A DNA stretch of 64,000 nucleotides from an uncultured Alphaproteobacteria bacterium (GCA_963829505.1 CAWHIL010000003.1:1297184-1361183), one strand, 5' to 3'. Shown: positions 1,993-63,449, counted from the stretch's first letter. Numbers and translations: made by a program. Notes: a model not told the origin generated them from the sequence alone.

Positions 1993-3246
1993 TCAGATCG
2001 CGGTCTCGAATTCCGCGAACATCGGCAGGTCGCGGTCGAGGGCCGCCTTGTCGATCAGCCGCTCGCGCACCCCGCGCATGATGATATAGGGCCGCAGGAT
2101 CGGGTTGAACAGCCGGTAGCGCAGGCGGTTGACGTCGCCGACCCTGTGCAGGATACGCCCCCGCTCGGGCTCGCTCAAATCTTTCAGCGCGCGCGAGTAG
2201 ATCACCGGTTCGCAGGGCTTGGCGCGGATCAGCGACAGCGGCGCCTTGACGGCGGAGGCAGTGAAGTAACGCTGCTCGTCGACCTCGGCGAGCGCGCAGG
2301 CGAGCAGCACTTCCTTGTAGAAATCGCTGTGCTGCTCGCTCCGGATCGCCTCGTTGTAGAGGCCCTTGACCGACTGCTGCCACTGGTCGAGGGCCCGATG
2401 CATGCCGAGTTCGACATGGTCGGGACCGATCATGAGGCTGCGCGCCGAGAGCGCCGCGCGGGCGCTGTAGATGCTGAGAAGGTGGGTGATATACGGCACC
2501 CCCTGAGAGAAATGGACGAGGTCCTCGCACGCCTCGAAATCGATCTCCATGCCGAGCCGCTCGAAGCCGGCCATGACGATCGCCCGAATCTCGCCTTCCG
2601 ACATCGCCGGCATGTGGACCTGGACGAGCGCCCGCTCGATCGACTGGTGCTCGCGAATCAACTCGTCGACCGAATCGGCGACGCCGATGATCAGAATGGT
2701 GGCGTTGACGGCGTGATCGGACAGCGCCTTGATGGTGTCGGCCATGGCGGTGATGGCCTCAGGACGGCGGATCCGGTCGAACTCGTCGAAGATCACGATG
2801 AGCGAGGCGCTCGCCGACAGGCCCTCGAGCGTGCGCCGGACGCCGTCGGGCGTGTCCGGTTCCTTCAGCGTCTCCTGCGGGGGCGGCGCCGCGAGTGGGT
2901 TCTTCGGCGCGCCGAAACCGATGCTCGGCCGCTGGTTGGCGGCCTCGATGTCCTTGAAGGCTTTCGACCAGAGGGAAGCGTAGGTATCGGAAATGTCGCA
3001 ATTGGTCCGCGACACAATGAAGGCCTGGCGCTTGGCGAGAAAGGCCGAGATCATGTTGGAAAGCGACGTTTTCCCGGTGCCGCGCTCGCCGTAGAGGATG
3101 GCGTGGCAGCCGCGTTGCGAGATGGCGTCGATGATCTTGAGGACCTGCTCCTTGCGGCCCGCGAACAGTTCGCGCTCGTTGATCGGCGCACCCGGTGTGA
3201 AAACCGCGCCGGTGCGAAAGATCAGGGAGTCGAAATCCGGTTCCAT
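1993..3246 (-). CDS. AAA+ ATPase, Orc1/Cdc6-like, function unknown
   Basis: Walker [10 protein letters not shown], Walker [11 protein letters not shown], helical lid and probable C-terminal winged-helix region. Confidence 0.8.
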
Positions 3247-3280
3247 GATCGCCCCCGGAGCACACAAACGACGCCAACGT

Positions 3281-3295
3281 ATAACAGACCGTTAA
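3281..3295 (-). promoter_or_regulatory. CtrA-box-like site upstream of the AAA ATPase
   Basis: Minus strand TTAA-CGGTCTG-TTAT, one mismatch to TTAA-N7-TTAA, 35 bp upstream of ATG 3246. Confidence 0.4.
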
Positions 3296-3778
3296 TTCGC
3301 GGGCTGCCGTCGACTTTCGTTATCCTGAACATGCGCCCCGGGGCGTTTTCGGTCAACTTTGCGCCTGTTCGCGCGAGACTGAATTCCCCTTCGGGAATGG
3401 CGGGCGCCGGTCAGGCCGCGACGTCGGCCAGGCGCGTGAAGACCTCCTCGTCGGACATCCCCGTGACATGCACGACGCCGCCGTCGGCCGGCGCGCGACC
3501 CATGACGTTGCACTTGGCGATCGTACTGGACGCTGGCGGCCGCCTCGACGGCCTTGGTGGAGGTTTTTGGCGGCCTCGTCGTGTCGCAAGCGCCGCTGGC
3601 CTCAAACGCGGCAGATGCGCCCGCCCCCTTGCGCGCCGTTTCTCTTTGACGTATGAGCCGGGTCCTCGAGAACCGCCCGGCTGGGCTGCCGTGGCGGTTC
3701 TTTTCGCTCGTTTCCGTGCGACGGAGCCACAAGCTCCGCTTCCATTTTCCAACAGGGCGTCAAGCCCGGGAGAGCCAA

Positions 3779-3979
3779 ATGCCCAAGCTGAAGACCAAAT
3801 CCGGCGCGAAAAAGCGCTTCAAGATCACCGGGACCGGCAAGGTCGTCTACGCCCAGTCGCAGAAGCGCCACGGCATGATCAAGCGGACGAAGAAGCAGAT
3901 CCGCAATCTGCGTGGCACCTCGATCCTGTTCAAGACCGACGGCGACAACGTCAAGAAGTATTTTCTGCCGAACGGCTGA
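3779..3979 (+). CDS. rpmI: 50S ribosomal protein L35
   Basis: [22 protein letters not shown]... Confidence 0.98.
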
Positions 3980-4005
3980 GGCCCTCTTTTCCCGGAGTTT
4001 TACGC

Positions 4006-4371
4006 ATGTCTCGCGTCAAGAGAGGCGTCACAGCGCACGCCAAGCACAAGAAGATTCTGAAGCAGGCCAAGGGCTTCTTCGGCCGCCGCAAGAACACCAT
4101 CCGCGCCGCCAAGGCCGCGGTCGACAAGTCGATGCAATACGCCTACCGCGACCGCAAGAACCGGAAGCGGGAGTTCCGCGCCCTCTGGATTCAGCGGATC
4201 AACGCGGCGGCCCGCGCGCATGGCCTGACGTACAGCCGGCTCATCTCGGCGCTGACCACGGCGGGAATCGAGGTCGACCGCAAGGTCCTGTCGGAACTCG
4301 CGATCAGCGAGCCCGCCGCATTCGCAGCGATTGTCGAGCAGGCGAAGGGCCATCTGCCGAAGGCGGCCTGA
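4006..4371 (+). CDS. rplT: 50S ribosomal protein L20
   Basis: [30 protein letters not shown]... Confidence 0.98.
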
Positions 4372-4378
4372 CAAAACG

Positions 4379-4482
4379 CCCTCTCCCGCGCGCGGGAGAG
4401 GGTTGGGGTGAGGGCCGTGGCCCTATCCCGCCGGCCCTCATCCGGCGCTCCGCGCCACCTTCTCCCCCAGTCGGGAGAAGGG
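4379..4482. repeat. Intergenic double-hairpin palindromic repeat (family B)
   Basis: CCCTCTCCCGCGCGCGGGAGAGGG...CCCTCATCCGGCGC...CCTTCTCCCCCAGTCGGGAGAAGG; related copies at 23623 and 63487. Confidence 0.8.
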
Positions 4483-9374: not shown

Positions 9375-9448
9375 CGGTCGACGCCGCGCTCCATACTTGA
9401 CGTCAAGCAAAAGGTCGTTCACCGTTCCGTGAGGCTTGGGTGGAAGCA

Positions 9449-10138
9449 ATGTCTGTCCCTAGCACGCTGGTGGCGCACCCCTATTTTCGAACGCTCGACG
9501 CCAAATCCTGCCGAGTTCTCGACAGGCACTGTACTTGGCTGAAAGCGGTCACGGGCTCGCTCATACTCGATCAGTCGTCCAACGAGCGGGACGTGTATTT
9601 CATCATGTCCGGGCAGCTGCGCGCGGTACACAACAACGCGCGCCAGGACCTCATCTTCAACGAAATGAGAGCGGGCTCGATCTTCGGCGAAATGGCGGCG
9701 ATCGAGGGCGCGCCGCGCGCGGCTAGCGTCTTCGCGGTCGTCAACTCGCTGATCGCCAAGATGCCGCCGCAGATTTTCATCGAGACGATGTACAGCCACC
9801 GGCCCCTGTGCGAGGCCGTCATCCGGACGCTCAGCGAGCGCCTGCGGGCGATGTCGAGCCGGGTGAGCGAACTCGGCGCATTCAATGTCCGCACGCGGGT
9901 CCACGCGGAGCTTCTGCAACTCGCCCGCAAGGACCGGGACGATCCGCGGCGCGCCATCATCGTGACCCCGCCCAACCAGTCCGAACTCGCCGCCCGGATC
10001 AACACGCGGCGGGAGACGGTCTCACGCGAAATCAATGCGATGGAGCGCAGCGGGCTGATCGAGCGGCGTCGCGGCGCCATCGTCATCAATGACGTTCTCA
10101 AGCTCAGCGCGGAGATCCAGCAGGCGAGCAGCGGCTAA
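9449..10138 (+). CDS. Crp/Fnr-family transcriptional regulator
   Basis: cNMP-binding domain (IFGEMAAIEGAPRAASV) and HTH NQSELAARINTRRETVSREI. Confidence 0.93.
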   Translation: MSVPSTLVAHPYFRTLDAKSCRVLDRHCTWLKAVTGSLILDQSSNERDVYFIMSGQLRAVHNNARQDLIFNEMRAGSIFGEMAAIEGAPRAASVFAVVNSLIAKMPPQIFIETMYSHRPLCEAVIRTLSERLRAMSSRVSELGAFNVRTRVHAELLQLARKDRDDPRRAIIVTPPNQSELAARINTRRETVSREINAMERSGLIERRRGAIVINDVLKLSAEIQQASSG

Positions 10139-10476
10139 GCCGTTACTCAAAAAAGCCGAAGAGATCGCCGGCGCGACGGCGACCCAAGATTTCTCTTTTA
10201 TGGAACGATCTCCCCGCCGACGTTCATCGTATCGTGAATTCGGCAGCGGGGTTGCAGCCCGAAAGCGGGTTCCTATCTGACCGATGTCATGCCGATGGCG
10301 GCGCGCCAAGCGGCCCTTGTCCGAGGGAGCCTCGCTGGCGCCGGGTCTGTCCGAGGCTGCGCGTCCCGTACGCTTCGACGGGCGCGTCCCTGGGGCGGTC
10401 CCGTGCGTCCGCCCTTGGGTTGACGAACGTTGTGGGCTCATTTCAAACAGGCAGGACGGGCCCGGGAACGCTCGCG

Positions 10477-12641
10477 ATGACTTCTGGAACGAAAGGGACG
10501 ATCCGCGCTACCGTCGTCACCTTGCCGGGAGTGGGCGAGTACGAGTGGCGCGTCGGCGAGAAGCAGATCGTCTGGTCCGATGAGCTCGTCCGGATCTATG
10601 GCTTCGACGCAGCTCCGGCCAATTCGGGGTTCGACGCGTTTGTCCATCCCGACGACCGCTCCATTCTGGCCGAAACCCACGCACGGCTCTTTCCCGGCGC
10701 TTCCTACGAGCTCGAATTTCGCGTCGTTCGGGCGGACGGCGAGCTTCGCCACATTCACGATCGCGGCATGGTCGTCGTGGCCGACGATGGCGCGCTCGTC
10801 CTGCGGGGCCTGCACATCGACGTCACTCTCTACCGCGCCGCCCTGGAAACCGACCTGCCGGCGATCGACTTCCGCGAGGTGGCGGAATCCCTTCCGCAGC
10901 TCGTATGGACCTGCGATCCGACGGGCGCCTGCGACTACCTCAGCCCCCAGTGGGCGACCTACACTGGCGTCCCGGCCGAGGAGCAGCTCGGCGCCGGCTG
11001 GCTCGAGCGCCTGCACCCGGACGATCGGGAGCCTGCCTGGGCGCGCTGGCAGGAGACGGCCCGCTGGGGTCACGACTACGAGTGCGAGTTCCGCATCCGC
11101 CGCCACGACGGCGCCTATCGCTGGTTCCGCACCCTCGCCAAGCCGCTGCACGATCCTGACGGGCAAATCCGCAAATGGTTCGGCAGCAACACCGACATCG
11201 AGGATCTGAAGCAGGCCGAGGCCGCCCGGCGCGAGAGCGAAGCCGCCGCCAACGCGCGCGCCGTGGAGCTCGAGACGCTCTACAACGCCGCGCCCATCGG
11301 CATCGGGCTCTTCGACCGCGACTTCCGCTTCGTCCGCATCAACGAGCGGCTGGCCGAGATCAACGGCGTCCCCGCCGAGGCGCTCAAAGGAAAACGCATC
11401 GAGGAGGCCCTGCCGGAGGAGACCGTCAGCGCGCTCCGCGCCATCGAGCCGCGCCTCGCCCGCGGCGAGGAGGTGAGGAACGCCGAGGTTTCGGGGTTCG
11501 AGGCGGACGGCCGACGGTTCGCCTACGTCCTGAACTATCGGCCGTTGCGCGGGGAGACGGGCGACATCACCCACTATCTCGGCGCCGTGCAGGACATCAG
11601 CGACCGCAAGCGCATGGAAGACGCGCTGATCGAGAGCGAATTGCGCTTCCGCGGCGTGTTCGAGCACGCTTTCACCGGCATCTCGATCACCGATTTCGCC
11701 GGCCGCCATGTGTCCTGCAATCCGGCCTATGAAGCGATGCTCGGCGTGCGCGCGGAGGGGCTGGCCGGGACGCCGCTCACGGATTCCATTCATCCCGAGG
11801 ACCGCGAGGCGAACCGCGCCGAAGTCGCGCGGCTGATCGCCGGCGAGATCGACGCGTTCGAGATCGAGCATCGCTATCTGCACACGAGCGGCGAAACGAT
11901 CTGGGCGCGCAAGCGCGTGTCGCTCCTGCGCGACGCGCGCAACCGCCCGACGCATGTGATTGCGCTCGTCACCGACATGACGGAGCAGAAGCGCCACGAG
12001 GCGCGCCAGCAGCTCCTCCTGCGCGAACTGAACCACCGGTCGAAGAACCTGCTTGCGCTCATCATGGGCATCGCGCGGCAGACGGCGGCGAAGAGCCCTG
12101 GCGAATTCCTGCCGCGCTTCGAGCAGCGGCTGCGCGCCATGGCCGCGGCGCAGGATCTTCTTGTGCGCAACGAATCGCGCAGCGCCACGATCGAGGACCT
12201 CCTGACCTCGCAGCTCGTCGCGTTCGGCGGCCTCGAGGAGCGCGTCGACGTTTCGGGCGACGACATCGCCGTCACAGCGACCGCGGCCAATCTCTCGGCA
12301 TGGCGTTTCACGAGCTTGCGACCAACGCGGCGAAATACGGCGCGCTCTCGACCCCGCCCGGGCGGATCGACGTCGCCTGGTCGATCGGGCAGGGCGACGG
12401 CTGCCTTGACGTTTTCCGCCTCTCGTGGATCGAGCGCGGCGGCCCGCCCGCGGCCGAGCCGGCGTCGCGCGGCTTCGGCTCAAGCCTGCTCGAGCGCCTG
12501 ATCCCGTCCGCCTTCGACGGCAAGGTCGTCTATGCGTTCGACGCGACCGGCGTCTCCTGGCGCCTCACCTGCCCTGCCGACAAAATCGTCGCCAAAGGCT
12601 CGGTGGCTGGCGACGAGCTTCCGGATATCCCGGCGCATTGA
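10477..12641 (+). CDS. Multi-PAS HWE sensor histidine kinase (1-bp frameshift at ~12287, probably sequencing error)
   Basis: Four PAS/PAC-like repeats, ELNHRSKNLL H-box; HELATNAAKYGALS and WIERGGP continue in the frame of ORF 12300-12641. Confidence 0.88.
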
Positions 12642-15718: not shown

Positions 15719-18700
15719 TTACCCCTTCTTCCCGGCGATCTTGGCGATCTCGCGCATCAGCTTCAGCGTTCCGTCGAGGCGGTCGGCGAGTTCCTCGAAA
15801 TCGTCGGCCACCACGATGCGCATGTCGGGGCGGACGCGCGCCCCCTCCCCCTGCGCGGCGACCCACTTCACGAGACCCGTCGGGTTGGCGAAGGCGTTGC
15901 CGCGGAAGGCGAGCGTCACGCCCTTCGCGCCGGCGTCGAGCTTCTCGACATTCGCCTTGCGGCAGAGCGCCTTGATCTGCACGAGCTTCATGAGAAGCCC
16001 CACTTCCGGCGGCGGCGGGCCGAAGCGGTCGACGATCTCGGCGGCCATTCCGTCGATCTCGGCCTCGTCCTCGAGCGAGGAGAGGCGGCGGTAGAGATTG
16101 AGGCGCGTCGGAAGGTCGGCGATATAGCTCTCCGGAATCGTCACCGGCGCGCCGAGTTGGATGGTCGGCGACCACATCTCGTCGGGCGCGGCGTCCTCGC
16201 CCGACTTGATGCGTTCGACCGCCTCGCGCACCATCTGCTGGTAGAGTTCGTAGCCGACCTCCTTGATGTGGCCGGACTGCTCCTCGCCGAGAAGATTGCC
16301 GGCGCCGCGCAAGTCGAGGTCGTGGCTTGCGAGCTGGAAGCCGGCGCCCAGCGTATCGAGCGACTGGAGGACGGCGAGACGCTTCTCCGCCTGCGGCGTG
16401 ATCTTCGCCCGCGCCGGCGTCGTGAAGATCGCGTAGGCGCGCACCTTGGCTCGCCCCACCCGGCCGCGCAATTGATAGAGCTGGCCGAGGCCGAACATGT
16501 CGGCGCGGTGCACGATCATGGTGTTGGCGGAGGGAATGTCGAGCCCCAACTCGACGATCGCGGTCGAGAGCAGGATGTCGTACTTGCCGTCGTAGAAGGC
16601 GCCGATCCGGTCCTCGAGCTGGGTCGCCGCCATGTCGCCGTGCGCCACGACGAATTTCGCCTCCGGCACGTTCGTGCGCAGGAAGGCGGCCGCCTCGTCG
16701 AGGTCGTCGATGCGCGGGCAGACGTAGAAGGACTGGCCGCCGCGGTAGCGTTCGCGGAGCAGCGCCTCGCGGACGATCAGCGCGTCGAACGGCGAGACGA
16801 AGGTCCGGACCGCGAGCCGGTCGACGGGAGGCGTCGCGATGATCGAGAGATCGCGCACGCCCGTCATGGCGAGCTGGAGGGTGCGCGGGATCGGCGTCGC
16901 CGAGAGGGTCAGCATGTGGACCTCGGCGCGCAGATCCTTCAGCCGCTCCTTGTGGGCGACGCCGAAATGCTGCTCCTCGTCGATTACGACGAGACCAAGA
17001 TCCTTGAACGACACCGTCTTGCCGAGGACGGCGTGGGTTCCCACAACAATGTCGACCGAACCGTCGGCGAGGCCCTTCTTCACATCGCGCTGCTCCGCCG
17101 TCGGCACCATGCGCGACAATTGGCCGATCGTGACCGGCAGCCCGGCGAAGCGCTGGCGGAAGACGCGCGCGTGCTGGCGCGCCAGCAGGGTCGTCGGCAC
17201 GACGATCGCGGTCTGCTTCGAATTCATCGCCGCGGCGAAGGCGGCGCGCAGCGCCACCTCCGTCTTGCCGAAGCCGACGTCGCCGCAGACGAGCCGGTCC
17301 ATCGGACGACCCGCGCCGAGGTCGTCGAGCGTGGATTCGATCGCGCTCTCCTGGTCCTGCGTCTCGTCGTAGGGGAAGCGGGCGCAGAACTCGTCGTAGA
17401 GCCCCTCGGGCGTGGTCAGGCGCGGCGCGGGCCGCGTCATGCGCTGGGCGGCGACGCGGATCAGTTCGCCCGCCATCTCGTTGATGCGCTTCTTGAGCCG
17501 GCCTTTGCGCGACTGCCAGGCGGCGCCGCCGAGCCTGTCGAGCTCGCCCGTCTCCGAGCCGTAGCGCGACAGAAGCTCGAGGTTCTCGACCGGGAGGAAG
17601 AGCCGGTCGCCGCCCGCGTAGTGGATCTCGAGGCAGTCGTGCGGCGCGCCCGCCGCCTCGATCGTCTTCAAGCCCACGAAGCGGCCGACGCCGTGATCGA
17701 CATGGACGACGAGGTCGCCCGCGGACAGCGCCGCGGCTTCCGCCAGCACGTCCTGGGCGCGGCGCTTGCGTTTCGCCCGCCGCACCAGCCGGTCGCCAAG
17801 AATGTCCTGCTCGCCGACGATTGCGAAACCGGGCGCCTCGAAGCCCTGCTCGAGCGCGATCACCGCAAGCGGCAGCGCGCCGCCCCTCGCGGTCTTGACC
17901 TGGTGGTAAGAGGAGACGAGCTCCTGGGCTTTCAGGCCATGCTCGGCGAGCACATGGCCGAGTCGCTCGCGCGAGCCGTCGCTCCAGCCGGCGACGACGA
18001 CGTCGAGACCGCTCTTGCGCAGATCCCGGATGTGGCCGACGGCGGCGTCGAAAACGTTGGCCCCCTCCGTCTGGCGCTCGGGAGCGAAGCTGCGCCCGAC
18101 GCGGCCGCCGCAGTCGATCACCGCGGGACCCTCCGGCGCGTCGAAGGGCGCGAGCCGGACGAGCGGGCCGGCGGCGATCCGCTCGCGCCATTCGCCGCCG
18201 GTCAGATAGAGGCGCTCGGGCGGCAGCGGCTTGTAATCCGCCTTCCCCGGGCTTTCCTTGTAAACCGCGCGCCGCGCCGCGTAGGAATCCTCGACCTGTT
18301 CGAGGCGACGCTGAGCCGCCTCCTCGGCGCGCGCGTCGATGACGAAGGGCGCGTCGCCGACATAATCGAAGATCGTGTCGAGGCTTTCGTAGAGAAGCGG
18401 CAGCCAGTGCTCGAGGCCGATCGCCCGCCGGCCTTCGCTGACGGCGGCGTAGAGATCGTCGGCCGGCGTCGGCGCCCGAATTCCTGCGCATAGAGCTGGC
18501 GGAAGCGGCGGATCGTTTCGGTCGAAAGCTGCGCCTCGCTCATCGGCACGAGGTCGAGAGCGCGTAAACTGCCGACGGTCCGCTGCGTCTCCGGATCGAA
18601 GGCGCGGATCAATTCCAGCGTGTCGCCGAAAAAGTCGAGGCGAATCGGATTGGGCGCGCCGGGCGGATAGAGGTCGAGAATGCCGCCGCGCGAGGCGTAA

Positions 18701-19248
18701 TCGCCGACGTCGCGCACGGTGCTGGCGCGCGCGTAGCCGTTCGCCTCGAGCCAGCGGGCCAGATCGTCCATGCGCACGCTGTTGCCGGGCGCGGCGGAGA
18801 AGGCGGCGGAGGCGAGATAGGCGAGCGGGGGGACGCGCTGGGTCAGCGCATTGACGTAAAGCACGAGCACCCGCGGCCGCTCGCGCGACCCCCGCGAGCG
18901 GGCGAGGCGGGCGAGCGCGGTCATGCGCTCGGCCGAGACGGCCGGGTTGGGCGACACGCGGTCGTAGGGCTGGCAGTCCCAGGAGGGCAGATAGAGCGCC
19001 TCGATCTCGGGCGCGGCGAAGGCGAGCGCGTCGATGAAGGCCTGCGCGCGCGCCGCGTCCCGGGCGACGAAGACGAGCGCCGCGCCTCGCTGCTCGCCCG
19101 CCGCGGCGAAGGCGCGCGCCAGTTCTGCGACCACGAAGGCGTCGTAGCCCTCGGGCGCCCGCGACAGCGTGACGGCGCCGCCCGCCTCGAGGCGGCCTGC
19201 GGCGGTGCGGACGTCGACGAGCCGGCTTCGTTCCTTGATTTCGTTCAC
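15719..19248 (-). CDS. mfd: Transcription-repair coupling factor (1-bp frameshift at ~18476, probably sequencing error)
   Basis: N-terminal UvrB-like part in ORF 18202-19248; CarD-like, GDVGFGKTEV, DEEQHFG, QLRGRVGR and TRCF domain in ORF 15719-19324. Confidence 0.95.
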
Positions 19249-19711: not shown

Positions 19712-19963
19712 GGTCAATCCCTCAACTGGGCGGGGGCGCGTCATCCAACGCGGCGCGACCGCAGAAGATCCGCTTCCCCGTCATTCCCCTCGTAGGGCGC
19801 TTATAGCGGCGGGGCGAAGCACTGTCAGCGATCCGATGTGCCATAAGAGCTTTGACGTGGATCCGGCGAACTCGGGCCGCCGTTTCGCCGAAACCGACTT
19901 GAAAGCCGACCCGGCCCGCCCGCGGCAAAGGTGGGGCGGAAACTTTCGAAGGGAACGCTTCGA

Positions 19964-21556
19964 ATGGTCGACATCCTGACGCGCTGGCTCTTCGACGCAT
20001 CCGGCCTCACGCCGCATGGCTTCTGCCTCCTGTGGCAGCCCGGTCTCATCTGGACCTACGCGCTGTCGGACGCCGGCATCGGTCTCGCCTATTTTTCGAT
20101 TCCCGTCGCGCTCGCGGTGATCGCGCGCAAGCGCCAGGACCTCGTGTTCCGCCCTCTGCTTCTCCTGTTCGCCGCCTTCATCATGCTCTGCGGGGCGACG
20201 CACTGGCTCGACGTCGTGACGCTCTGGCTCCCGGCTTACGGCCTTCAGGCCGTCGTGAAGGCTCTCACGGCGGCGGTGTCGATCTTCACGGCGGTCGCTC
20301 TGTGGATGCTTCTGCCCGAGGCGATCAAGCTACCGTCCCCTTTGCAATTCCGCGAGACGAGCGCCGCCTTGCGCGAAACGGAGGAGCGGCTGCGGCAGTC
20401 GCAGAAGATGGAGATCGTCGGGCAACTGACAGGCGGCGTCGCGCACGACTTCAACAACATGCTCCAGGCGATCGGCGGCGGCCTGACCGTGCTCGAGCGG
20501 CGCATCGCCGACGGGCGGCTCGACGACATCGGACGGATCGGCAAGGAGATGCGCCGCGCCCTCAATAGCGCCGCGGGACTGACGGACAGGCTGCTCTCCT
20601 TCTCGCGCCGCCAGACGCTGCGGCCGACCCGCATCGAGCCCGACACATTCATCGCCGGCATGCGCGATTTCCTCCAGCGCACCGTCGGGCCCGAGACGCG
20701 GCTCGCCATGAGGCTCGGGGACGGCAAGTCGGACATCGTGGTCGACGCGCAGCAACTCGAGGCGATGCTGCTCAATCTGGCGCTCAACGCCCGCGACGCG
20801 ATGCCGAACGGCGGGCTGCTCACAATCGAGGTGTCCGACCGGGACGTCGAGCCGGGCGAGATGGCGGATCAGGAGCGGGTGAGCCCCGGAAGCTATGTGG
20901 AGATCAAGGTGGCCGACAGCGGGGTCGGCATGACGCCCGACGTTGTCGCACGCGCCTTCGAGCCTTTTTTCACCACCAAGCCGCATGGGGCCGGCACCGG
21001 CCTCGGCCTGTCGCAGGTCTACGGCTTCGTGCGGCAATCGGGCGGATTTTCGCGCATCGAAAGCCGGCCGGGCGCGGGCGCGAGCGTCATCGTCAGCCTG
21101 CCCGGGCGGCCCCGCGCGGAACGCGAGGAGGCGGCGCCGCCGCAAGCCGCGCCGGCCGAAGCCGATGCGGCGCCGGCGCGCGGCGTCGTGCTCGTGGTCG
21201 AGGACCAGGAGGAAGTGCGCGCGCAGATCGTCGAGGCGCTGGCCGAGGCCGGATGCGAGGTGATCGAGGCGACGGACGGCCTCGCCGCGCTCAACATCGT
21301 CGAGGCGCGGCGCACCCGGATCGACCTCCTGGTCAGCGACGTCGGGCTTCCCGGCCTCAACGGGCGCCAGCTCGCCGACGCCGCGCGCGAGGTCCGGCCA
21401 GGCCTGCCGATCCTGCTCGTCACCGGCTACGCCGCGCGTGCGCTCGACACGATCAAGCTCGCCGAGGGCATGGAAATCCTGCGCAAGCCCTTCGAGCTCG
21501 CGGAGCTTGTCGCGCGGGTCAAGGCGATGATGACGGCTCGGCCTGTCCCCGGATAA
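19964..21556 (+). CDS. Hybrid histidine kinase/response regulator with an ethylene-receptor-like membrane sensor
   Basis: SDAGIGLAYFSIP...FIMLCGATH...VKALTAAVS N-terminus; GGVAHDFNNML H-box; PFFTTK, GTGLGL; receiver with DLLVSDVGLPG. Confidence 0.9.
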   Translation: MVDILTRWLFDASGLTPHGFCLLWQPGLIWTYALSDAGIGLAYFSIPVALAVIARKRQDLVFRPLLLLFAAFIMLCGATHWLDVVTLWLPAYGLQAVVKALTAAVSIFTAVALWMLLPEAIKLPSPLQFRETSAALRETEERLRQSQKMEIVGQLTGGVAHDFNNMLQAIGGGLTVLERRIADGRLDDIGRIGKEMRRALNSAAGLTDRLLSFSRRQTLRPTRIEPDTFIAGMRDFLQRTVGPETRLAMRLGDGKSDIVVDAQQLEAMLLNLALNARDAMPNGGLLTIEVSDRDVEPGEMADQERVSPGSYVEIKVADSGVGMTPDVVARAFEPFFTTKPHGAGTGLGLSQVYGFVRQSGGFSRIESRPGAGASVIVSLPGRPRAEREEAAPPQAAPAEADAAPARGVVLVVEDQEEVRAQIVEALAEAGCEVIEATDGLAALNIVEARRTRIDLLVSDVGLPGLNGRQLADAAREVRPGLPILLVTGYAARALDTIKLAEGMEILRKPFELAELVARVKAMMTARPVPG

Positions 21557-21610: not shown

Positions 21611-22213
21611 ATGCACATTTTGGCTGAGCGCCGGCGGCGCGATGGAGATCGTAATACGCTCGTGCGAGCGCTTGCGTACACCTGGGGATTGGCGGCGACC
21701 GCGTATATACCCATTTCACAATACATGCGAGAGTATTTCGACACGGATGAAAGGTATCGGTATCACGGGCACATTCGGACTTTCTCAGGAAACGTATATT
21801 TTTTCTCGACGCATACTTTCGCAAACGATACGTGGGCCGCACTCGCATTTTCTTTCGTTGCGATGGCCGCCATCACGACCCTGGACTACCTGCTGTTTTT
21901 ATTGCCGATCCCTGTCTTCATACTGACAAAGACAGGACGCGTTCGGAATGTGATCGGATTTTTGGCGACGTTGCTCGCAATACCTATGACATTATACCTA
22001 ATTGAAGCAGTCAATACAGGAAAGTCGGATCTGGATAGAGAGCCATTTAGTCCTTTTGAAGCGCTTTGGGCTCTAATTTCGATTTCGTCTCTGTTATTTT
22101 TAGTAGGTGAAACTTTCTACAGAGCGAGCGACAGGATCAAAAGATACCTACTCACGTCATCTTTCGTTGTGTTCGCCTGTCTCTTCATTCTGTACTGGAT
22201 CGCCAAGGGCTAA
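21611..22213 (+). CDS. AT-rich hypothetical integral membrane protein
   Basis: Open frame of ~200 aa with about five hydrophobic segments; codon usage visibly unlike the flanks. Confidence 0.6.
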   Translation: MHILAERRRRDGDRNTLVRALAYTWGLAATAYIPISQYMREYFDTDERYRYHGHIRTFSGNVYFFSTHTFANDTWAALAFSFVAMAAITTLDYLLFLLPIPVFILTKTGRVRNVIGFLATLLAIPMTLYLIEAVNTGKSDLDREPFSPFEALWALISISSLLFLVGETFYRASDRIKRYLLTSSFVVFACLFILYWIAKG

Positions 22214-22223
22214 CGACGCGGCG

Positions 22224-24149: not shown

Positions 24150-24306
24150 AACGCGGGTATATACCCGTAATCGCGGCGGCGCACAAGGGCCTCTCCCCCT
24201 CGCGCAAACCATCGCTTAGCCAAAAGTCAGCCTCTTATTTCCGAAAACGCGGTTGTGGATTAGTTGACGGCGTTATAAAACAATGGGAGGCTGTGGGACC
24301 CCGACG

Positions 24307-26618
24307 ATGTGCAAGAACGCGCTCGCGTTGATGACATCCGTATCGCTTGTCTTCGGCGCCGCGCCGGCGGCGTTCGCCCAGGTTTCTTGCTCGGACGCGC
24401 TTGCGCAGGTGCGGGCGCTGCGGAGCGAGGGGGCCGCCCCTGCCGCGATCCGTCAGATGAAGCAGATCGCGCGTTACGCCTGCGACCCGCAGGCCCAGGC
24501 GCAGTTGGCCCTGCAGCAGCAAATGCAACAGGACGCCGAGAACCAGGCGGCCATGCAGGCGTTCGCCGGCCTGGCGGTCGGCATCATGGGCGGCCTCGCC
24601 CAGAGCGGCGCTTTTTCCGCGTCGACCTCCAATTACGTGGCCCCGCGAATGACGACGAACTTCGCGCCGCGGTTCGTGCCGAACGTTGCGCCGAGATTTC
24701 GCGCCGAACGTTGCGCAGCAAGGCATGCCGATCCGACCCCCGACGTTTGCGCCGAGGTTGGCCGCCTCGCCCACCGGCGCATTCGCCGCGCCCCGGATGC
24801 CGGCCTCCGCCCTGCCGGGCCATCCGATGCCCGCCGGCGCGCCAGTTGCGGGCTTGCGGCCGACGCCGGCGACCGGGTCTCAGGCGGGCTTGCAACGTCT
24901 GCCGGCGAATGCGCCTGGCGCACATTTTGCCGAACCGGGATCGCGCCCAGCGGTCGAATCGGTGGTCGCCGAACGACGAGCGGCGCTTGGCGGGCCGCCG
25001 GAGGAAGGCGCGACGCCCCGGTACCTTGCGGGGTCACGCGTGACCCCGGACATGGCGCCGGCGGCGGCCGTTGCGCCCAAAACTCTCGCGGGCGGCGGCG
25101 CCGCGCCGACAAACGTGGGGTCTCGCGCGCAGCCGGCATGGGCGGTTGCGACGGCGCCGGCCGCGACGCCTGCGGTCGCGGCGGCGCCTGCGGCCTTGAC
25201 AACGGCTGCCCCCACCGCGACGCCTGCGACCGCCGCCGCCCCATCGCCGTCGAGCGGCGGTTCGGCGTCGGCTTCGGTGTCGGGGTCGAATTCAGCAACT
25301 CTCCTCGCTGCTGAACAATACGAACGCCGACGCGCGTTCGCGTCAGTTCGCCAGCGCGGCGTTGAACCAGCCGGTTCCGAGCGCATCGAGCGCAGCCAGT
25401 TCCGGCGTGGCGCAATCGAGCCAGCAGACCACCGTCAGCACGAACGCGCTGATTGCGGCGACGTACAAGCCAGCCGGCGCGCACTACGGCTGCTCGGGGC
25501 TGATGACGGCGATGGACGAAATCCGGGACGCGAACCCGTCGGGATACAATTCCAGTATCCCGCTGTACAACAGCCTTTGCGGAGGCGCCGGCGGGTCCGC
25601 AAGCGGCGGCGTCTCGGCTCTCCTGACGCAAGTCGCGAATGCGACGCCGCTCACAGGCAATTCGCTATCGTCCCTGTCGACGCTTCAGACTTCGACCGCC
25701 GCGGCGACGGTCCCGACGCTTTCGAACGGCGATCCCGCGACGGACCTACTCAGCGCCATCCTGGCCGCACCGTCCGCGGCGCCAGCGAACGCCGATGTGG
25801 CGGGGTGGGAGTCCCTGCTCGGGACTTCCAGCGGATCGCCGACGACCGGCGCGCAGGGCTCAAATTCTTCGCAGCTCCTGGCAGCGCTCGCGGGCGGAGG
25901 AACCGCGGCCGCGTCGACTGGCGCCGTTGTGTCCGCGCAAGCGCCGGCCAACATCACGGTGCAACCCGGATCGCAATCCGTCCAGGATTCCAACACCGTC
26001 CAACTCAATGCCGACGTGAAGACGAGTATTGCGTCGCTGACGCCGCCGTCGGCGTCGGCGTCGCAGACGCAGGCATCGGCGCCGGCAGGTTGGGGCCCCA
26101 TGGGCGTCAACACTTTCACGGCTTCGCAGCCAACGGCGAATTCGGGCGCACAGTCAACGCAGGCGAGCGTTGCAGCCGGATCGACGCTTGCAAAGCCTCC
26201 AATCGTCATCCTCGAGGATACGGCAACTGCCGCGCTTGGCGGAGCGGCGAGCGCAATCTCGCCCGGCGGCGCCGTCAATGTGCTCGGTGACGTCAATGAC
26301 GCCGCAAGCGTCTATTCAGGTTTTCGAAGCGGCGGGACCTTCGGGGCGCTCGACGCGGGAGCCGAAGCGGTCTTCGCCCGGGGCGCCACGGCGGCGGGAC
26401 TGGAAATGGGCGCGTCGGCTGCAATGACGGGCGCGGGAGCAACAGGCATCGCAACAATGACGACGGCGATCGGGGGAGCGGCGATAGGAGGAGGATTGGC
26501 GGCTGGAGTGGCCGTGGGTTCGTTTGAATTCTCCAATGCCTTTATCGCTCCATACGTCGCTCCGCAGTTGGGAACGTTGATGTTCAATGCGGCCCCGTCT
26601 CTCTTCACGCCGCCCTGA
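24307..26618 (+). CDS. Large secreted Ala/Pro/Ser/Thr-rich hypothetical protein (reconstructed across 1-bp insertions at ~24698 and ~25291)
   Basis: Signal peptide in ORF 24283; low-complexity linker in ORF 24686; C-terminal domain in ORF 25362. Removing one T at each junction gives continuous sensible sequence (APRFAPNVAQ; SGSNQQLSSLLNN). Confidence 0.6.
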
Positions 26619-26659
26619 AGCCGCGACGAGCGTGGTTCGGCATTCCATGCCGTCGGTCG

Positions 26660-26777
26660 AGACGCGCATCGGGATGGGCGCGCGTCTCGAAGCACGCTTC
26701 CTCGTGCGCAGGGAACGGCGTCGCGTCCTGGAGCAACCTTCGAGACGCCCTGCTTCGCAGGGCTCCTCAGGACGAGG
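26660..26777. repeat. Intergenic inverted-repeat element (family A), left arm degenerate
   Basis: CGCGTCTCGAAG...CCTTCGAGACGCC...GGCTCCTCAGGACGAGG. Confidence 0.75.
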
Positions 26778-26893
26778 GTCGCGTGTGGCGCCTCGCCGCC
26801 GGCGAGGCTGCTCAGCACGTGGGGGCGCTTGGGAGCTACTCGACTTCGTGTCCGGAAAGTCGGACGCGGTTCAACAAGGAGGATGGGGGCGCG

Positions 26894-27370
26894 ATGAAGA
26901 GTGTTTCTTTCGGCATGATGGCGGCGACCGTGTCCGCGCTCGCCTTGTGCCTCACAGCCTGCTCGCAGACGGCTGGCCAGAACCAGACGCAGGACGCGGT
27001 TCTCGGGGCGGTGGCGGGCGGGCTTCTCGGCGGCGCGATCGGAGGCGCTGCGGGCAACCAGGTCGTCGGGGCCCTGGCCGGCGCCGCGATCGGCGGCATC
27101 GTCGGCGCAGGCATCGGGAACTACCTCGACGAGCAGGACCGCGCCCAACTGGCGGATATGACCGAGGCCACGGCGCAGACAGGAACGGTCGGCCACTACT
27201 ACAACCCTAAGACCAAGGTGCGCCTGACGACCCGTCCCGCCGCTGCAGCGACGGCGTCGGCAACCTCGAACTGCAAGGACGTCGATCAGGAATTGACGCT
27301 CGCCGACGGCACGACAAAGAAGGGCAGCGTTCGCGCGTGCCGCACCGGCAACGAGTGGACCTACTCCTGA
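26894..27370 (+). CDS. Glycine-zipper lipoprotein (17-kDa surface antigen/RT0821-like)
   Basis: Lipobox LTAC, GAVAGGLLGGAIG...GALAGAAIGGIVGAGIGNYLD, C-terminal NCK...RACRTGNEW. Confidence 0.85.
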   Translation: MKSVSFGMMAATVSALALCLTACSQTAGQNQTQDAVLGAVAGGLLGGAIGGAAGNQVVGALAGAAIGGIVGAGIGNYLDEQDRAQLADMTEATAQTGTVGHYYNPKTKVRLTTRPAAAATASATSNCKDVDQELTLADGTTKKGSVRACRTGNEWTYS

Positions 27371-27372
27371 CA

Positions 27373-28234
27373 GTGCGGTCTTCGAGCGTCGCGCGCCGCC
27401 TTGCTCTCCTGTTCGTCCTGCAAGGCCTGGCCTGCGGCGTTGCGCAAGCTCAGGCGCCGGTCGTTCACGACAAGGCGGGCAGACTGCGAGCGACCGTCGT
27501 TCCGGCGACGAACTGGTGCCTGCCCGTCGTCAGTCTCAACGTCGTCGCGGGCAAGGACGTCTTTGAAAAGTCCGCGGAGGACGTCCAGAAACTCATCGGC
27601 GTCGCGCGCTACGCGATCACCGAGAACTGCCCCGAAGCTCAGATCGTGCGCGTCCGTGGCTTCGTCGGCGACACAGGAGTTCTTTCAGGCCTACACCGGA
27701 AGGGCGATCGACTGGCGCATTCAGGTCTTCGCCTCGGTCGGCGGCATTCTGTCGGTCCTCGATGTGAAGCTGCCTCCCGACGAATATGCAAGAAGGCTCG
27801 CCGAGTTCGAAACGCGGACCCAATTCGCGCGCGCCAGACTTCCGGGCGTGACGATCGCCTCCGCGGGCGCGGACGCGGCGAACGGCCGGGTCGGCTGGAC
27901 GATCGATAACGTCGCGGGCAGCACCTACGTGCTCACAGAGCGGTCGAAAAGTTTCACCACTCTGTCCTCAGTCGCAGACATGGTCGCCCATGCACGCGCC
28001 GAAGGCTGCGCAAACCAGGAGAAGGGTTCCGTCGAGAATGCCATCGACGGCGACATCGCTCCCAACATCCAGACACGCTCGTTCGCATGTTCGGTCGAGG
28101 GAAAGACAAACACGATCGGCATCGTCGCTGACGAGGTGGACGACGTCGCGACGGTTTTTGAGTTCGGCTCAGCGTCCGAATCCGCAGCCCGCGCTCTGAC
28201 GGGATATCTTTCCGACAAGGCGATCGTCTACTGA
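27373..28234 (+). CDS. Secreted hypothetical protein (1-bp insertion at ~27673)
   Basis: GTG start, signal peptide, four Cys; N-half in ORF 27337, C-half in ORF 27401. Confidence 0.55.
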
Positions 28235-59030: not shown

Positions 59031-59274
59031 GGCCGGCGCCGGCCGCGTGAGCTTCGCGGGCGGGGCCTTGAGCTTCGGGCGGGCTCTATATCAGCTTGCC
59101 CGGCGAGCGCCAGAGGAAAAAGGACCGGAGGCAGATGTGCGCCGCCCTCGGCGCCGTCGCGGCAAAGGTTGCCTCACCCGGCCGCTCCGCTAAGAAGAGC
59201 GCCGGGCGAAGCGGAGGGGCGCGCCTCGGCGTCCCGGTTTTTAACGGCCTGTCCCGACTTTTCTCTCGTGGTCC

Positions 59275-60693
59275 TTGCGAAAGAGTCCCGGTTTGAACCT
59301 CCCGCCGCATCGACGACGACCCCCGCCGCTCCCGGCGCCGAGCAGGCGGGCCTTTCTCGCCGGCGGCCTCGCGGCGACCGCGTGGGGCCTCGTCCCGGCA
59401 GACGCCGGGTCCGCGGACCCGGGCCCCCAGGGCGTGACGCTGATCGAGGCGGCGCCGTCGCCCCTCCAGCTTCTGCCCCCGCCCGCCAAAGCGGCGGCGG
59501 GCCTCGCCTATTCGGGCGCGATCCCGGGGCCGCTCCTGCGGCTGAAGAAGGGCGAGGAACTGAGGCTGAAAGCGTCGAACAGGCTCGCGGAGCCGACGAG
59601 TCTGTGCTTTGCGGGCCTGCGCTCGGCAAACGCCGTCGCCGGCTACGGCGGCCTCACCGGACCGCGCCTCGCCCCCGGGACGAGCGCCGACCTCCGCTTT
59701 ACGCCTCCCGACGCGGGCTTCAATCTCTACCTGCCGCATGCGGGGGCGACCGACGCCGGCCAGCAGGGCCGCGGGCTTTTTGGACCGATCGTCGTGGACG
59801 AGGCGGAGAAAGTCGATGTCGACCAGGATTTCGTCGTCGTGCTGTCGGACTTCAACGCCGACGACAAGGGTCAGATCCCCGACGATTTTTCCGATCCCGG
59901 CGTTGCGCGGGGCGCCGGGCGCAAGGCAGGCCTGATCTTCGCCAACGGCGCGGCGGCCCCCTTGAGCCTCGCGGCGCGCCCGGGCGCGCGCGTCCGCCTG
60001 CGCCTCGGCAACGCCGCCACCGCACGCCTGACCAATGTCGCGATCGACGGGGCGAAGGCGGTCATCGTCGCCGTCGACGGCCAGCCGAGCGAACCCTTCG
60101 AACCCCTCCACAACCAGTTCCCGATGGGCCCCGGCGCACGCTTCGAGCTTATCTTCGACATGCCGGCGCAGGCGGGCGCGGAGGTGAAATTCGCCCTGCG
60201 CTCGGACCCGGGCGCGCCCGACCTGCCCTTCGTCGCCATCGCCGCCTCGGGCAATTCGGTCGCGCCGCGGGGAAGCCCGCCGCGCCTCCCCGCCAATCCG
60301 GCGTTGCCGGCGGAAATCGCGCTCGAGGCGGCCCGGACCTTCGAGATCGCCGTCACCGGCGGCGGCGCGGCCCCTTTCGCGGTCAACGGCGCGACCTTCA
60401 CGGACTGGGGGCCGAAGCCGCTGGCCAGCGTTGCCCGCGGCGCCCCGACCGTCTTCGCCTTCGCCAACAGGACGGCGGTCGTTCAGGCGATGCGGCTCGG
60501 CGGTCACGTCGCCCGCCTCCTTCATTCGATGGACGACGGCTGGGAGCCCTATTGGCGCGACACCATCCTGATCCAGCCCGGCCGCACGCTGCATGTCGCC
60601 TTCGTCGCCAGCAGTCCCGGCAAGTGGCCGGTCGAATCGGCGATCCCCGAGCACCGCGCGGCGGGCGTCGGGGCCTGGTTTCAGGTGGGGTGA
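59275..60693 (+). CDS. Tat-exported multicopper-oxidase-fold protein lacking copper ligands
   Basis: SRRAFL twin-arginine motif; PGPLLRLKKGE, RGLFGPIVVDE, RVRLRLGNA, WRDTILIQPG cupredoxin landmarks. Confidence 0.88.
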   Translation: MRKSPGLNLPPHRRRPPPLPAPSRRAFLAGGLAATAWGLVPADAGSADPGPQGVTLIEAAPSPLQLLPPPAKAAAGLAYSGAIPGPLLRLKKGEELRLKASNRLAEPTSLCFAGLRSANAVAGYGGLTGPRLAPGTSADLRFTPPDAGFNLYLPHAGATDAGQQGRGLFGPIVVDEAEKVDVDQDFVVVLSDFNADDKGQIPDDFSDPGVARGAGRKAGLIFANGAAAPLSLAARPGARVRLRLGNAATARLTNVAIDGAKAVIVAVDGQPSEPFEPLHNQFPMGPGARFELIFDMPAQAGAEVKFALRSDPGAPDLPFVAIAASGNSVAPRGSPPRLPANPALPAEIALEAARTFEIAVTGGGAAPFAVNGATFTDWGPKPLASVARGAPTVFAFANRTAVVQAMRLGGHVARLLHSMDDGWEPYWRDTILIQPGRTLHVAFVASSPGKWPVESAIPEHRAAGVGAWFQVG

Positions 60694-61538: not shown

Positions 61539-61595
61539 GCCCCGTCGTCTACCTAAGGTTGTACGCAGTGCAACCTGACTGGCCGGCTTTTTGTC

Positions 61596-63449
61596 ATGCT
61601 CGGGGCTCCGAAATCGTTAACCGTCCAGACCCGCTTCATGGCGTTCGCCGCGATCGGGGTGCTTGCGGTCGTCGCCGCCGCGGTTGCGCTGGTCGGCTGG
61701 GCGGAACGCCAGTCGCTCGAAGCCCGCGTCCACGCGCTCTCGGAGAACGAGCTGCAATCCTTGAACGCGCTCGTCGAAACCGCCATGCGACAGCGTCTCG
61801 ATGACAGCCAGGACGTGGCGATCAAGGTGTTCAACGGCTGGTTCGAGAGCCGCAACAAGAACTATCCAGGCGAACTCTGGAGCGTCTGGAGCCCCAAGGT
61901 CACCGCTTTCGTCGCCGAGGCGTCGCCCGGACGCCCGCCCAAGGCCGCGCGCGACGCGATCGACGCCGAGGCGATGGCGACCGGGCGCCCTGCCGCGGGC
62001 TTCGTCGGCTCCTCCTACCGCTACAGCGTGCCGATCGTGCTCGGCCAGACGCTCGCCGAGCCGAAAGAGACCTGCATGATCTGTCACGGGCAGGCGATGG
62101 GGCTGAAGGAAGGCGAGACGATCGCCGTCTTTTCCTCGAGTCTGTCCGCCGCGAAGGATTATTCGGCGCTGAACGCCCTTCTGTGGCGCATCGCGGGCGC
62201 GGGGCTCGTCGTCAGTCTCCTCGTGATCGCGGTCATCTGGAGCCTGCTCGGCCGGGTCGTGACGCGGCCGCTCGCCCGGATGACGGAGATCATGGGCCGG
62301 CTTGCCGAAGGCGACACGAAAGTCGTCGTGCCGGCCGAGGACCGGGGCGACGAGATCGGCGCCATGGCCAAGGCGATCCTCGTCTTCCGCGACGCCGCAA
62401 TCGACAAGGCGCGCCTCGAGAGCGAGGCCGAAGAGCAGCGCCACGCGGCCGAACGCGCCCGCGCCGCAGCGGAAGAGGCGCAGACGAAGGCGATCGCGGA
62501 CGAGCGCAAGCTCGTCAACGATTCGATCGGCGTCGCGCTCGCGAGACTGGCGCAAAAGGACCTCTCGTGGCGGATGACGAGCGACATCCCCGCGTCTTAT
62601 CGAAAGCTTCAGTCGAATTTCAACGATGCGATCGGCGAGCTCGAGGGCGCCATGCAGGACGTCCGGTCCGCGGCCCAGACGATCGATGCGGGCGTCGACA
62701 GAATAACCTCCGGCGCCGACCGCCTCGCCGCGCGCGCCGAGCAGCAGGCGGCGAACCTCGAGGAAACCAACGCCGCGCTCGGCGAAATCACCCATGCGAC
62801 CGAGCTTTCCGCCGGGAACGCGGCCGCGGCGCGCAAGGTGGCCGCGATCGCCGACAAGGACTCGCAGAAAAGCCTGTCGGTGGTGCGCGAGGCGGTCGGC
62901 GCGATCGATTCGATCTCGCGAACCTCGGCCGAGGTCGGCCAGGTGATCGGCGTCATCCAGGAGATCGCCTTCCAGACGAACCTCTTGGCGCTGAACGCGA
63001 GCGTCGAGGCGGCGCGTGCGGGCGATGCGGGCAGAGGCTTCGCCGTGGTCGCAACGGAGGTCAGGACGCTTGCGCAACGCGCTTCCGACGCGGTGAGGGA
63101 GATCAAGACCCTGATCTCCGCCTCCGCAGCCGAGGTCGGGCGCGGCGTGGGTCTCGTGCACGACACCGGCTCGGCGCTCGAGCGCTCGATCGCCAAGGTC
63201 GAGGACATCAGCCGCATCGTCAACGACATCGCCGACAGCGCGAAACGCCAGGCCTCGGGCGTGGCCGAAATCAGCGCGACGATCGACGCGATGGACAAGA
63301 CGACGCAGGAGAACGCCGCGATGGCCGACCAGTCGACCGCCGCGGCTCATTCGCTTTCGGACGAATGCCGCAAGCTCAGAGACCTCGTCGCCCTCTTCCG
63401 GCTCGGCCCCGCGACGCATGCGGCGGACACGCGATCGCGCGCGGCGTGA
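61596..63449 (+). CDS. Methyl-accepting chemotaxis protein with periplasmic CxxCH
   Basis: Two TMs, CMICH at 62073-62087, HAMP (RGDEIGAMA), signalling hairpin [39 protein letters not shown]. Confidence 0.93.

Follow-up and report, generated by a model that had tools for sequence, protein, structure and literature searches.

The 64-kb stretch of DNA analysed here (CAWHIL010000003.1:1297184-1361183, from an uncultured alphaproteobacterium; referred to below as the window) carries a gene for a hybrid sensor histidine kinase with an N-terminal domain of the ethylene receptor type. The protein is probably a Cu(I)-dependent sensor kinase for ethylene or another small alkene, with an autokinase activity that is likely to be inhibited by the ligand and a phosphorelay to a partner encoded elsewhere; we would put the probability of this at about 0.7. 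The assignment is made because the sensor aligns without gaps, at 47% identity, with the ethylene-binding fragment of AzoEtr1 from Azospirillum brasilense. The protein is a further member of a large, recognized and curated family, and not a new kind of system. It belongs to a widespread subfamily in which a copper/ethylene-type site is joined to a complete kinase through one helix whose length does not vary. Its main interest lies in this minimal sensor-to-kinase architecture and in an unexplained, strictly conserved His/Cys motif at the N-terminus.

The putative ethylene- and copper-binding residues

Residues are numbered on the 530-aa form, which starts at the ATG at 19964; a 541-aa form is used only where it is named. 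The open reading frame (ORF) in the ORF list of the window occupies 19931..21556 on the plus strand, and the ATG at 19964 is the start in 104 of 120 aligned homologues, so that the gene is taken to be 19964-21556, encoding 530 aa plus a stop codon. These are also the coordinates proposed in a first-pass annotation of the window, made from the sequence alone, and the ORF is intact across them. The four strings that this annotation quoted are all present, namely PHGFCLLW (aa 17-24), SDAGIGLAYFSIP (aa 35-47), FAAFIMLCGATH (aa 69-80) and VKALTAAVS (aa 98-106). An exact-product look-up of the window protein returned no match; another start codon may have been called. Pfam assigns the sensor to ETR1_N (PF25487, 'Ethylene receptor 1-like, N-terminal domain') with E 3.2e-34. 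The score of 117.5 bits against a cut-off of 27 puts this match far beyond chance; it spans model positions 2-97 of 97, the model beginning at aa 28.

Seven residues are required for ethylene binding by ETR1, namely D25, Y32, I35, P36, I62, C65 and H69 (PMC11819568). Their equivalents occur in the window protein at the same spacing, as D36, Y43, I46, P47, I73, C76 and H80, respectively, and K99 is the equivalent of ETR1 K91, for which the loop between the second and third transmembrane helices (TM2 and TM3) has to be three residues shorter. All eight had been proposed in the first-pass annotation, and the alignments with both ETR1 and AzoEtr1 bear them out. The numbering of the ETR1 N-terminus used for comparison reproduces the published D25/C65/H69/K91; with this sequence, BLASTP gave 35% identity over 110 aa (E 9e-17), with one three-residue gap before K99. 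In an AlphaFold2 (AF2) model built from 112 sequences, with a mean predicted local distance difference test (pLDDT) score of 78.7, the TM helices comprise aa 26-56, 63-88 and 92-121. D36, Y43, I46 and P47 are then on TM1, I73, C76 and H80 on TM2, and K99 on TM3, and the putative Cu(I)-ligand pair lies one helical turn apart on TM2 in the pentapeptide C76-G-A-T-H80. The sites of the classical etr1 alleles (A31, I62, C65 and A102) are conserved as A42, I73, C76 and A110. ETR1 D25 is described as taking part in copper binding or in the orientation of H69, and a bridge between D25 and K91 as transferring the signal to TM3; roles for C65 and H69 are also described (PMC10266040). D36 and K99, the equivalents of this polar pair, are both present.

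None of the seven binding residues varies among 112 close homologues (56-79% identity), and K99 is nearly invariant. A more diverse set was formed by the best 150 of the phmmer matches to aa 1-146 (46-84% identity). C76, Y43 and I73 are found in all 150 of these representatives, H80 in 149, P47 in 146, K99 in 141, D36 in 139 (Asn in nine) and I46 in 137 (Met in 10). The replacement of D36 by Asn agrees with the 3.67% Asn reported in PMC10266040.

Linkage of the sensor to the kinase

The Pfam scan of the kinase found ETR1_N, HisKA, HATPase_c and Response_reg only, with neither a PAS nor a GAF domain. Together with the interval of only about 40 residues from the end of TM3 to the phospho-accepting H161, predicted to form one continuous helix, this bears out the direct fusion of sensor to HisKA, HATPase and receiver that the first-pass annotation had described. 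In the AF2 model, the chain breaks at aa 122-125 (L-P-S-P) and then continues as a single helix (126-183) through H161, followed by the second helix of the dimerization and histidine phosphotransfer (DHp) domain (189-215), the catalytic and ATP-binding (CA) domain and the receiver. P124 is invariant and S125 nearly invariant in the 112 homologues. In every one of the 105 subfamily members in which both motifs could be located, C76 and H161 are 85 residues apart. The lack of any insertion or deletion between the binding site and H161 is what mechanical transmission of a TM3 movement would predict. The loop between TM1 and TM2 (aa 55-63) is rich in Arg and Lys on reading the sequence, which fits a cytoplasmic position, and the predicted topology places the N-terminus outside and the output domains in the cytoplasm.

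The core formed by the output domains is complete. The HisKA match is weak (22 bits, under its own cut-off), although the AHDFNN H-box is clear. H161 is nearly invariant among the 112 homologues, and N275, D318/G320/G322, K339 and G344/G346/G348 are invariant; these belong to an N box (N271/N275), a G1 box (D318-x-G320-x-G322), an F box (F-E-P-F-F-T-T-K339) and a G2 box (G344-x-G346-x-G348). In the receiver, D414, D459 (the phospho-acceptor), T487 and K508 are likewise invariant, and the (beta-alpha)5 pattern is modelled with a pLDDT of about 90. The best solved relative of the core is the DHp-CA unit of CckA (5idj, E 1.3e-41), and Foldseek matched the CckA CA domain (5idm) with a TM score of 0.78-0.80 on the target; the full model retrieved kinase cores only. 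The likeness to CckA (5idj, 5idm; PRK13557) thus covers the DHp-CA-receiver core, with 37% identity over about 240 aa of DHp-CA, and the PRK13557 and CckA NCBIfam models match aa 148-535 of the 541-aa form. Identity with CckA was ruled out, since the NCBIfam scores are 334 against a cut-off of 631 and 322 against 1000 and the core alone aligns; the sensor of the window protein is unrelated to the PAS domains of CckA.

It may be asked whether the three-helix domain could be mainly ion-conducting, or a membrane anchor, with the kinase controlled in some other way. Plant ETR1/ERS1 have recently been reported to be Ca2+-permeable (bioRxiv 10.1101/2025.10.20.683334; PMC13261662), and no further sensory domain was found in the window protein. 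A mere anchor, however, would not keep C76, H80, D36, Y43, I73 and K99 invariant across thousands of proteins, and the fixed spacing of 85 residues between C76 and H161 argues for direct conformational coupling. The channel reports concern plant proteins and are compatible with ligand sensing. With the site invariant and its spacing to H161 fixed, we consider a structural or channel role very improbable.

Comparison with characterized receptors

SynEtr1 and AzoEtr1 are the two bacterial members of the family tested so far, and both bind ethylene and mediate ethylene responses (PMC11819568), so that the first-pass annotation was right to refer to functional receptors in Synechocystis and Azospirillum. 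AzoEtr1 was found by a sensor-domain search of a plasmid collection, as a 525-aa ORF on plasmid p1 of A. brasilense Sp7 (2480..4057 of locus L087). It is identified as AzoEtr1 because its length of 525 aa and its D35, C75, H79 and K98 match PMC11819568. Its N-terminal fragment AzoEtr1[1-130] binds 14C-ethylene saturably, and genes for D35A and C75A mutants have been made as predicted non-binding forms (PMC11819568). The alignment of the window sensor with this protein extends over 139 aa (66% positives, E 6e-41). D36, C76, H80 and K99 correspond to AzoEtr1 D35, C75, H79 and K98, with an offset of one, and every binding residue is identical. The two proteins share the shorter TM2-TM3 loop, which is taken to be the bacterial norm since AzoEtr1 aligns without gaps, as well as the P-H-G-x-C-x-x-W motif, a P-S hinge after TM3 and a canonical histidine-kinase output. 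They differ in what follows the sensor. AzoEtr1 has a PAS domain between sensor and kinase and no fused receiver, and a response-regulator ORF directly follows it in L087; the window protein has no PAS domain, carries its own receiver and a CckA-type (AHDFNN) core, and lacks a neighbouring partner gene.

SynEtr1 (slr1212 of Synechocystis sp. PCC 6803), which was compared by description, differs in being a bifunctional receptor for light and ethylene with an adjacent regulator, slr1213. Both SynEtr1 and AzoEtr1 have extra domains between sensor and kinase, which the window protein lacks. ETR1 shares with the window protein the three-TM Cu(I)/ethylene domain, the seven binding residues plus K91, the identical pentapeptide C-G-A-T-H, and the order sensor, histidine kinase, receiver. 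Identity to ETR1 is only 35%; ETR1 also has a GAF domain after the sensor, a TM2-TM3 loop three residues longer and, where the bacterial proteins have H-G-x-C, a C4-x-C6 pair that forms a disulfide-linked dimer. ETR1 signals mainly via CTR1, not by phosphorelay (PMC11819568).

The N-terminal His/Cys motif

Ahead of TM1, the 112 subfamily members have an invariant P-H18-G19-x-C21-L-L-W24 motif. It is the PHGFCLLW string to which the first-pass annotation had drawn attention as preceding the ligand set. Among the 150 diverse representatives, H is present in 144, G in 145, C in 147 and W in 145, making the motif as strictly conserved as the copper ligands. AzoEtr1 carries it too, as P-H17-G-V-C20-L-F-W23, and so do homologues from Bradyrhizobium sp. 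AT1 and a Rhodospirillales metagenome-assembled genome (MAG). The motif lies upstream of aa 28 and hence outside the Pfam ETR1_N model. In the AF2 model it forms, at low confidence, a short helix immediately before TM1, and the positive-inside distribution of charges in the loops would place it on the periplasmic side. A term search of PMC11819568 and PMC10266040 found no discussion of it.

The N-terminal tail contains a single invariant Cys, C21, preceded by H18, whereas ETR1 has the C4/C6 pair, for which a disulfide has been described (Schaller 1995, as cited in PMC10266040). A conservative reading would make C21 the counterpart of this disulfide, with the role of H18 unexplained. Alternatively, the motif may have a working role in the metal site of the bacterial domains, either as a periplasm-facing site for entry or capping of Cu(I) or as a source of additional ligands. 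Its conservation equals that of the copper ligands, and AzoEtr1, a proven binder, carries it, but we regard this reading as speculative and rather doubtful. Were it correct, bacterial receptors would acquire or coordinate copper in a manner unlike that of plant ETR1, whose corresponding segment has C4-x-C6 but lacks a His, and the PAS-less, fixed-linker subfamily would offer the simplest view of a membrane Cu(I)-alkene site driving a histidine kinase.

Proposed mechanism and the identity of the ligand

The window protein would be a homodimeric sensor kinase of the inner membrane, with one Cu(I) per monomer held in the three-helix domain by C76 and H80 of TM2 together with D36 of TM1, as proposed for C65, H69 and D25 of ETR1. 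Ethylene, or a small alkene closely resembling it, would diffuse into the membrane and bind the copper, altering the polar bridge between D36 and K99 and shifting the position of TM3. This helix would be coupled, via the P-S-P hinge and the helix of fixed length, to the DHp helix carrying H161. To judge from ETR1 and SynEtr1, the ligand would most likely lower autophosphorylation: ethylene is reported to inhibit the AtETR1 kinase and, on indirect evidence, that of SynEtr1 (PMC11819568). Phosphate would pass from H161 to D459 of the protein's own receiver, and from there to an Hpt protein and a response regulator encoded elsewhere, unless the receiver serves as an internal sink. Surface or biofilm behaviour is a possible output, by comparison with Azospirillum and Synechocystis.

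Several points weigh against an ethylene-responsive phosphorelay of this kind. The first 30 residues are modelled with low confidence (pLDDT 48-65). PAS-less members of the family, the window protein included, are known from sequence alone. The scanned ORFs of the window included no Hpt or response-regulator gene, and no copper-handling, ethylene-forming, alkene-oxidizing or ACC (1-aminocyclopropane-1-carboxylate)-deaminase gene was seen near the kinase; the context gives no functional support, because the neighbours are not conserved beyond close relatives. The host lives free in soil and is not known to associate with plants, and a source of ethylene is not evident. Finally, the Cu(I) site of ETR1 accepts other pi-acceptor ligands, so that the sequence does not reveal which ligand is the physiological one.

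The last point leads to the possibility that fold and Cu(I) site are as described but that the signal is not ethylene. It might be another small unsaturated or pi-acceptor compound of soil or peat, for example propylene, isoprene, acetylene, CO or an isocyanide, or else the occupancy or redox state of the copper itself, in which case the protein would be a membrane Cu(I)/redox sensor. ETR1 itself takes other alkenes and, weakly, CO. The family is very large (8,559 phmmer matches at E <= 0.001), with plasmid-borne copies and many hosts that are not plant-associated; the bacterial proteins have the extra invariant pair H18 and C21 beside the domain; and the ethylene-related genes sought nearby were not found. 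Against this, SynEtr1 and AzoEtr1 bind ethylene and mediate responses to it (PMC11819568), and AzoEtr1 has the N-terminal motif as well, aligns without gaps and is identical at all binding residues. Sequence cannot separate these ligands; ethylene is favoured because of the gapless match to a proven ethylene binder, and a different signal seems unlikely, though considerably less so than a channel or anchor.

If ethylene is the ligand, the window protein adds to the evidence that free-living Alphaproteobacteria of soil and peat, and not only plant associates, may monitor this gas, which accumulates in waterlogged soils. The compact architecture also makes the protein a minimal object for structural work, autophosphorylation assays and the design of biosensors. 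It is suited to the first of these because the ethylene-binding domain matched no Protein Data Bank (PDB) entry by sequence; a PDB search with the sensor alone gave no match even at E <= 10.

Size and architectures of the family

Putative proteobacterial ethylene receptors have been on record since at least 2016, and a further one will be no surprise to the field. The first-pass annotation overrated the rarity of the arrangement. ETR1_N is a curated Pfam family, a full-length search gave more than 110 clusters (at 90% identity) of proteins of 520-550 aa consisting of ETR1_N, HisKA/HATPase_c and Response_reg alone, and proteins with ethylene-binding domains have been reported repeatedly in proteobacteria (PMC11819568, PMC7700396, PMC10266040). 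A few longer relatives retrieved by the same search have a PAS domain inserted. The phmmer search with aa 1-146 was made against 1.84 billion representative proteins, and 6,222 of the matches remain at E <= 1e-10 and 916 at E <= 1e-30. Of 72 long, diverse representatives, 58 contain PAS, 56 HATPase_c, 37 a receiver, 10 GGDEF, seven EAL, seven Hpt and two GAF. Direct, PAS-less fusion is therefore a minority form (about 20%), but an abundant one.

The sensor search of plasmids found copies in Novosphingobium, Rhodovastum, Blastomonas and cyanobacteria. Plasmid homologues are annotated as 'PAS domain-containing protein', 'ATP-binding protein' or 'sensor histidine kinase', never as ethylene-receptor-like, and the AzoEtr1 region of L087 has no listed feature in the plasmid annotation table. 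In the Rhodovastum atsumiense plasmid (L088), the coding sequence is annotated from 4292, inside the sensor match at 4001-4411; as its start falls within the match, it may have been called too late, with loss of the first helices.

A full-length profile scan of genome contigs was dominated by the generic kinase pattern GG[IV]AHDFN. Among the matches listed, it gave 80 loci, of which 78 are unrelated kinases; the sensor domain is found only in L049 (Bradyrhizobium sp. AT1) and L071 (the Rhodospirillales MAG). In both cases (L071 2095-4413 and L049 7896-9956), the protein with the ethylene-binding domain is of the PAS type and lies near or at the generic kinase match. The L071 protein has Leu at the site of ETR1 I35 (Y-F-S-L-P), with the other binding residues and H-G-x-C kept.

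Gene neighbourhood and host

The features of the gene are collected in Table 1. Upstream of it lie mfd and sdhE (divergent), and downstream lie genes for a major facilitator superfamily (MFS) transporter and a MarR regulator (convergent). The order mfd-sdhE-kinase is kept in the two closest of the loci examined (76% and 71% identity), and three more distant orthologues are in unrelated gene contexts. Across five related loci there was no conserved neighbour, whether a response regulator, an Hpt or a copper- or ethylene-related gene. An operon partner was ruled out, the nearest genes being divergent (sdhE) or convergent (MFS) and not conserved. A second ethylene-binding gene in the window was also ruled out, as a six-frame profile search gave this one alone. 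A scan of 19745..19963 found no sigma-70-type promoter consensus, a terminator scan was uninformative, and PADLOC gave no hit for the kinase.

The first-pass annotation placed the host among soil or peat-type Rhizobiales, which is reasonable, and the host can be called Roseiarcus-like: the best named relatives of Mfd (85% identity) are from MAGs of Roseiarcus sp., a genus of the Hyphomicrobiales, and fragments of the locus occur with zero mismatches in soil-metagenome runs (DNA, low coverage).

Table 1. Features of the ethylene-receptor-type kinase gene, in window coordinates.
Feature	Position	Strand	Basis
Whole gene, hybrid sensor histidine kinase (ETR1_N-helix-HisKA-HATPase_c-REC)	19964..21556	+	ORF list, homologue starts, Pfam
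Intergenic region, 219 bp, between divergent sdhE (-) and kinase (+); presumed promoter region	19745..19963	.	Gene positions
N-terminal tail motif H18-G19-F-C21-L-L-W24, preceded by P17	20015..20035	+	Conservation; predicted periplasmic side just ahead of TM1
Ethylene-binding-type domain, three TM helices	20039..20326	+	Pfam ETR1_N, AF2 helices, conservation, ETR1 and AzoEtr1 alignments
Hinge I-K-L-P124-S125-P (aa 122-127) and signalling helix into DHp, without PAS/GAF	20327..20443	+	AF2, conservation
DHp/HisKA, H-box A-H161-D-F-N-N (phospho-accepting His)	20420..20614	+	Pfam HisKA (aa 153-217), CckA 5idj, near-invariance of H161
HATPase_c, N/G1/F/G2 boxes	20744..21106	+	Pfam (E 1.2e-17), invariant columns, Foldseek match to 5idm
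C-terminal receiver, E413-D414, D459, T487, K508	21188..21523	+	Pfam Response_reg (E 2.9e-18), conservation, AF2

Other features of the window

Elsewhere the window contains housekeeping genes (pheT, the nuo operon, that for RNase J and, presumably, the tig-clpP-clpX-lon group); Rfam found three tRNAs only. A Crp/FNR-type regulator gene is followed, with a slight overlap, by one encoding an ~800-aa sensor kinase that contains three PAS domains plus an HWE kinase domain (9401-12498, +); this kinase is another orphan sensor, at a distance of 8 kb from the ethylene-receptor-type kinase. The sole copper-related gene seen in the window encodes a three-domain multicopper oxidase (59245-60690, +). 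It lies at the far end, some 38 kb away from the kinase gene, and no evidence connects the two. A HAMP-MCP chemoreceptor gene (61557-63446, +) is found at that end as well. A 432-aa ORF (1996-3291, -) with matches to AAA_16, nSTAND1 and KAP NTPases adjoins an Nramp transporter gene; STAND-type NTPases such as its product are often found in defence or signalling islands.

Two regions have disturbed reading frames. In mfd (15722..19225, -), the gene for the transcription-repair coupling factor, there is a frame change at 18475-18496, corresponding to Mfd residue ~241-247, where a tblastn match of Roseiarcus Mfd splits between frames -2 and -1; Mfd homologues cover only 79% of the long mfd ORF. 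This is either a real frameshift or an assembly indel; mfd is likewise called in three pieces in L081, a syntenic locus, which is a hint that these assemblies contain sequencing errors. Secondly, about 4 kb at 24268-28231 (+) has no clean gene, but a chain of overlapping ORFs in shifting frames with an only moderate third-position GC content (0.74-0.79). The first of these ORFs has a signal-peptide-like start followed by Ala/Pro/Gln-rich repeats, and the region could be a frameshifted gene for a large secreted protein; L081 has a CoA-transferase gene at this position.

The convergent kinase and MFS genes are separated by an island of low GC content (21650-22215, about 600 bp, GC 0.42-0.55 against ~0.67 around it). 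Its ORF (21611/21725..22213, +; 162-200 aa) looks, on reading the sequence, like a four-helix membrane protein. Among 5.8 billion proteins its only match is itself, and searches of PHROGs, PADLOC and NCBIfam gave no match, with Bac_rhodopsin appearing only below threshold. The island is missing from L081, where the kinase and MFS genes are 19 bp apart, but Logan contig L086 contains it with zero mismatches, as do fragments from two soil runs.

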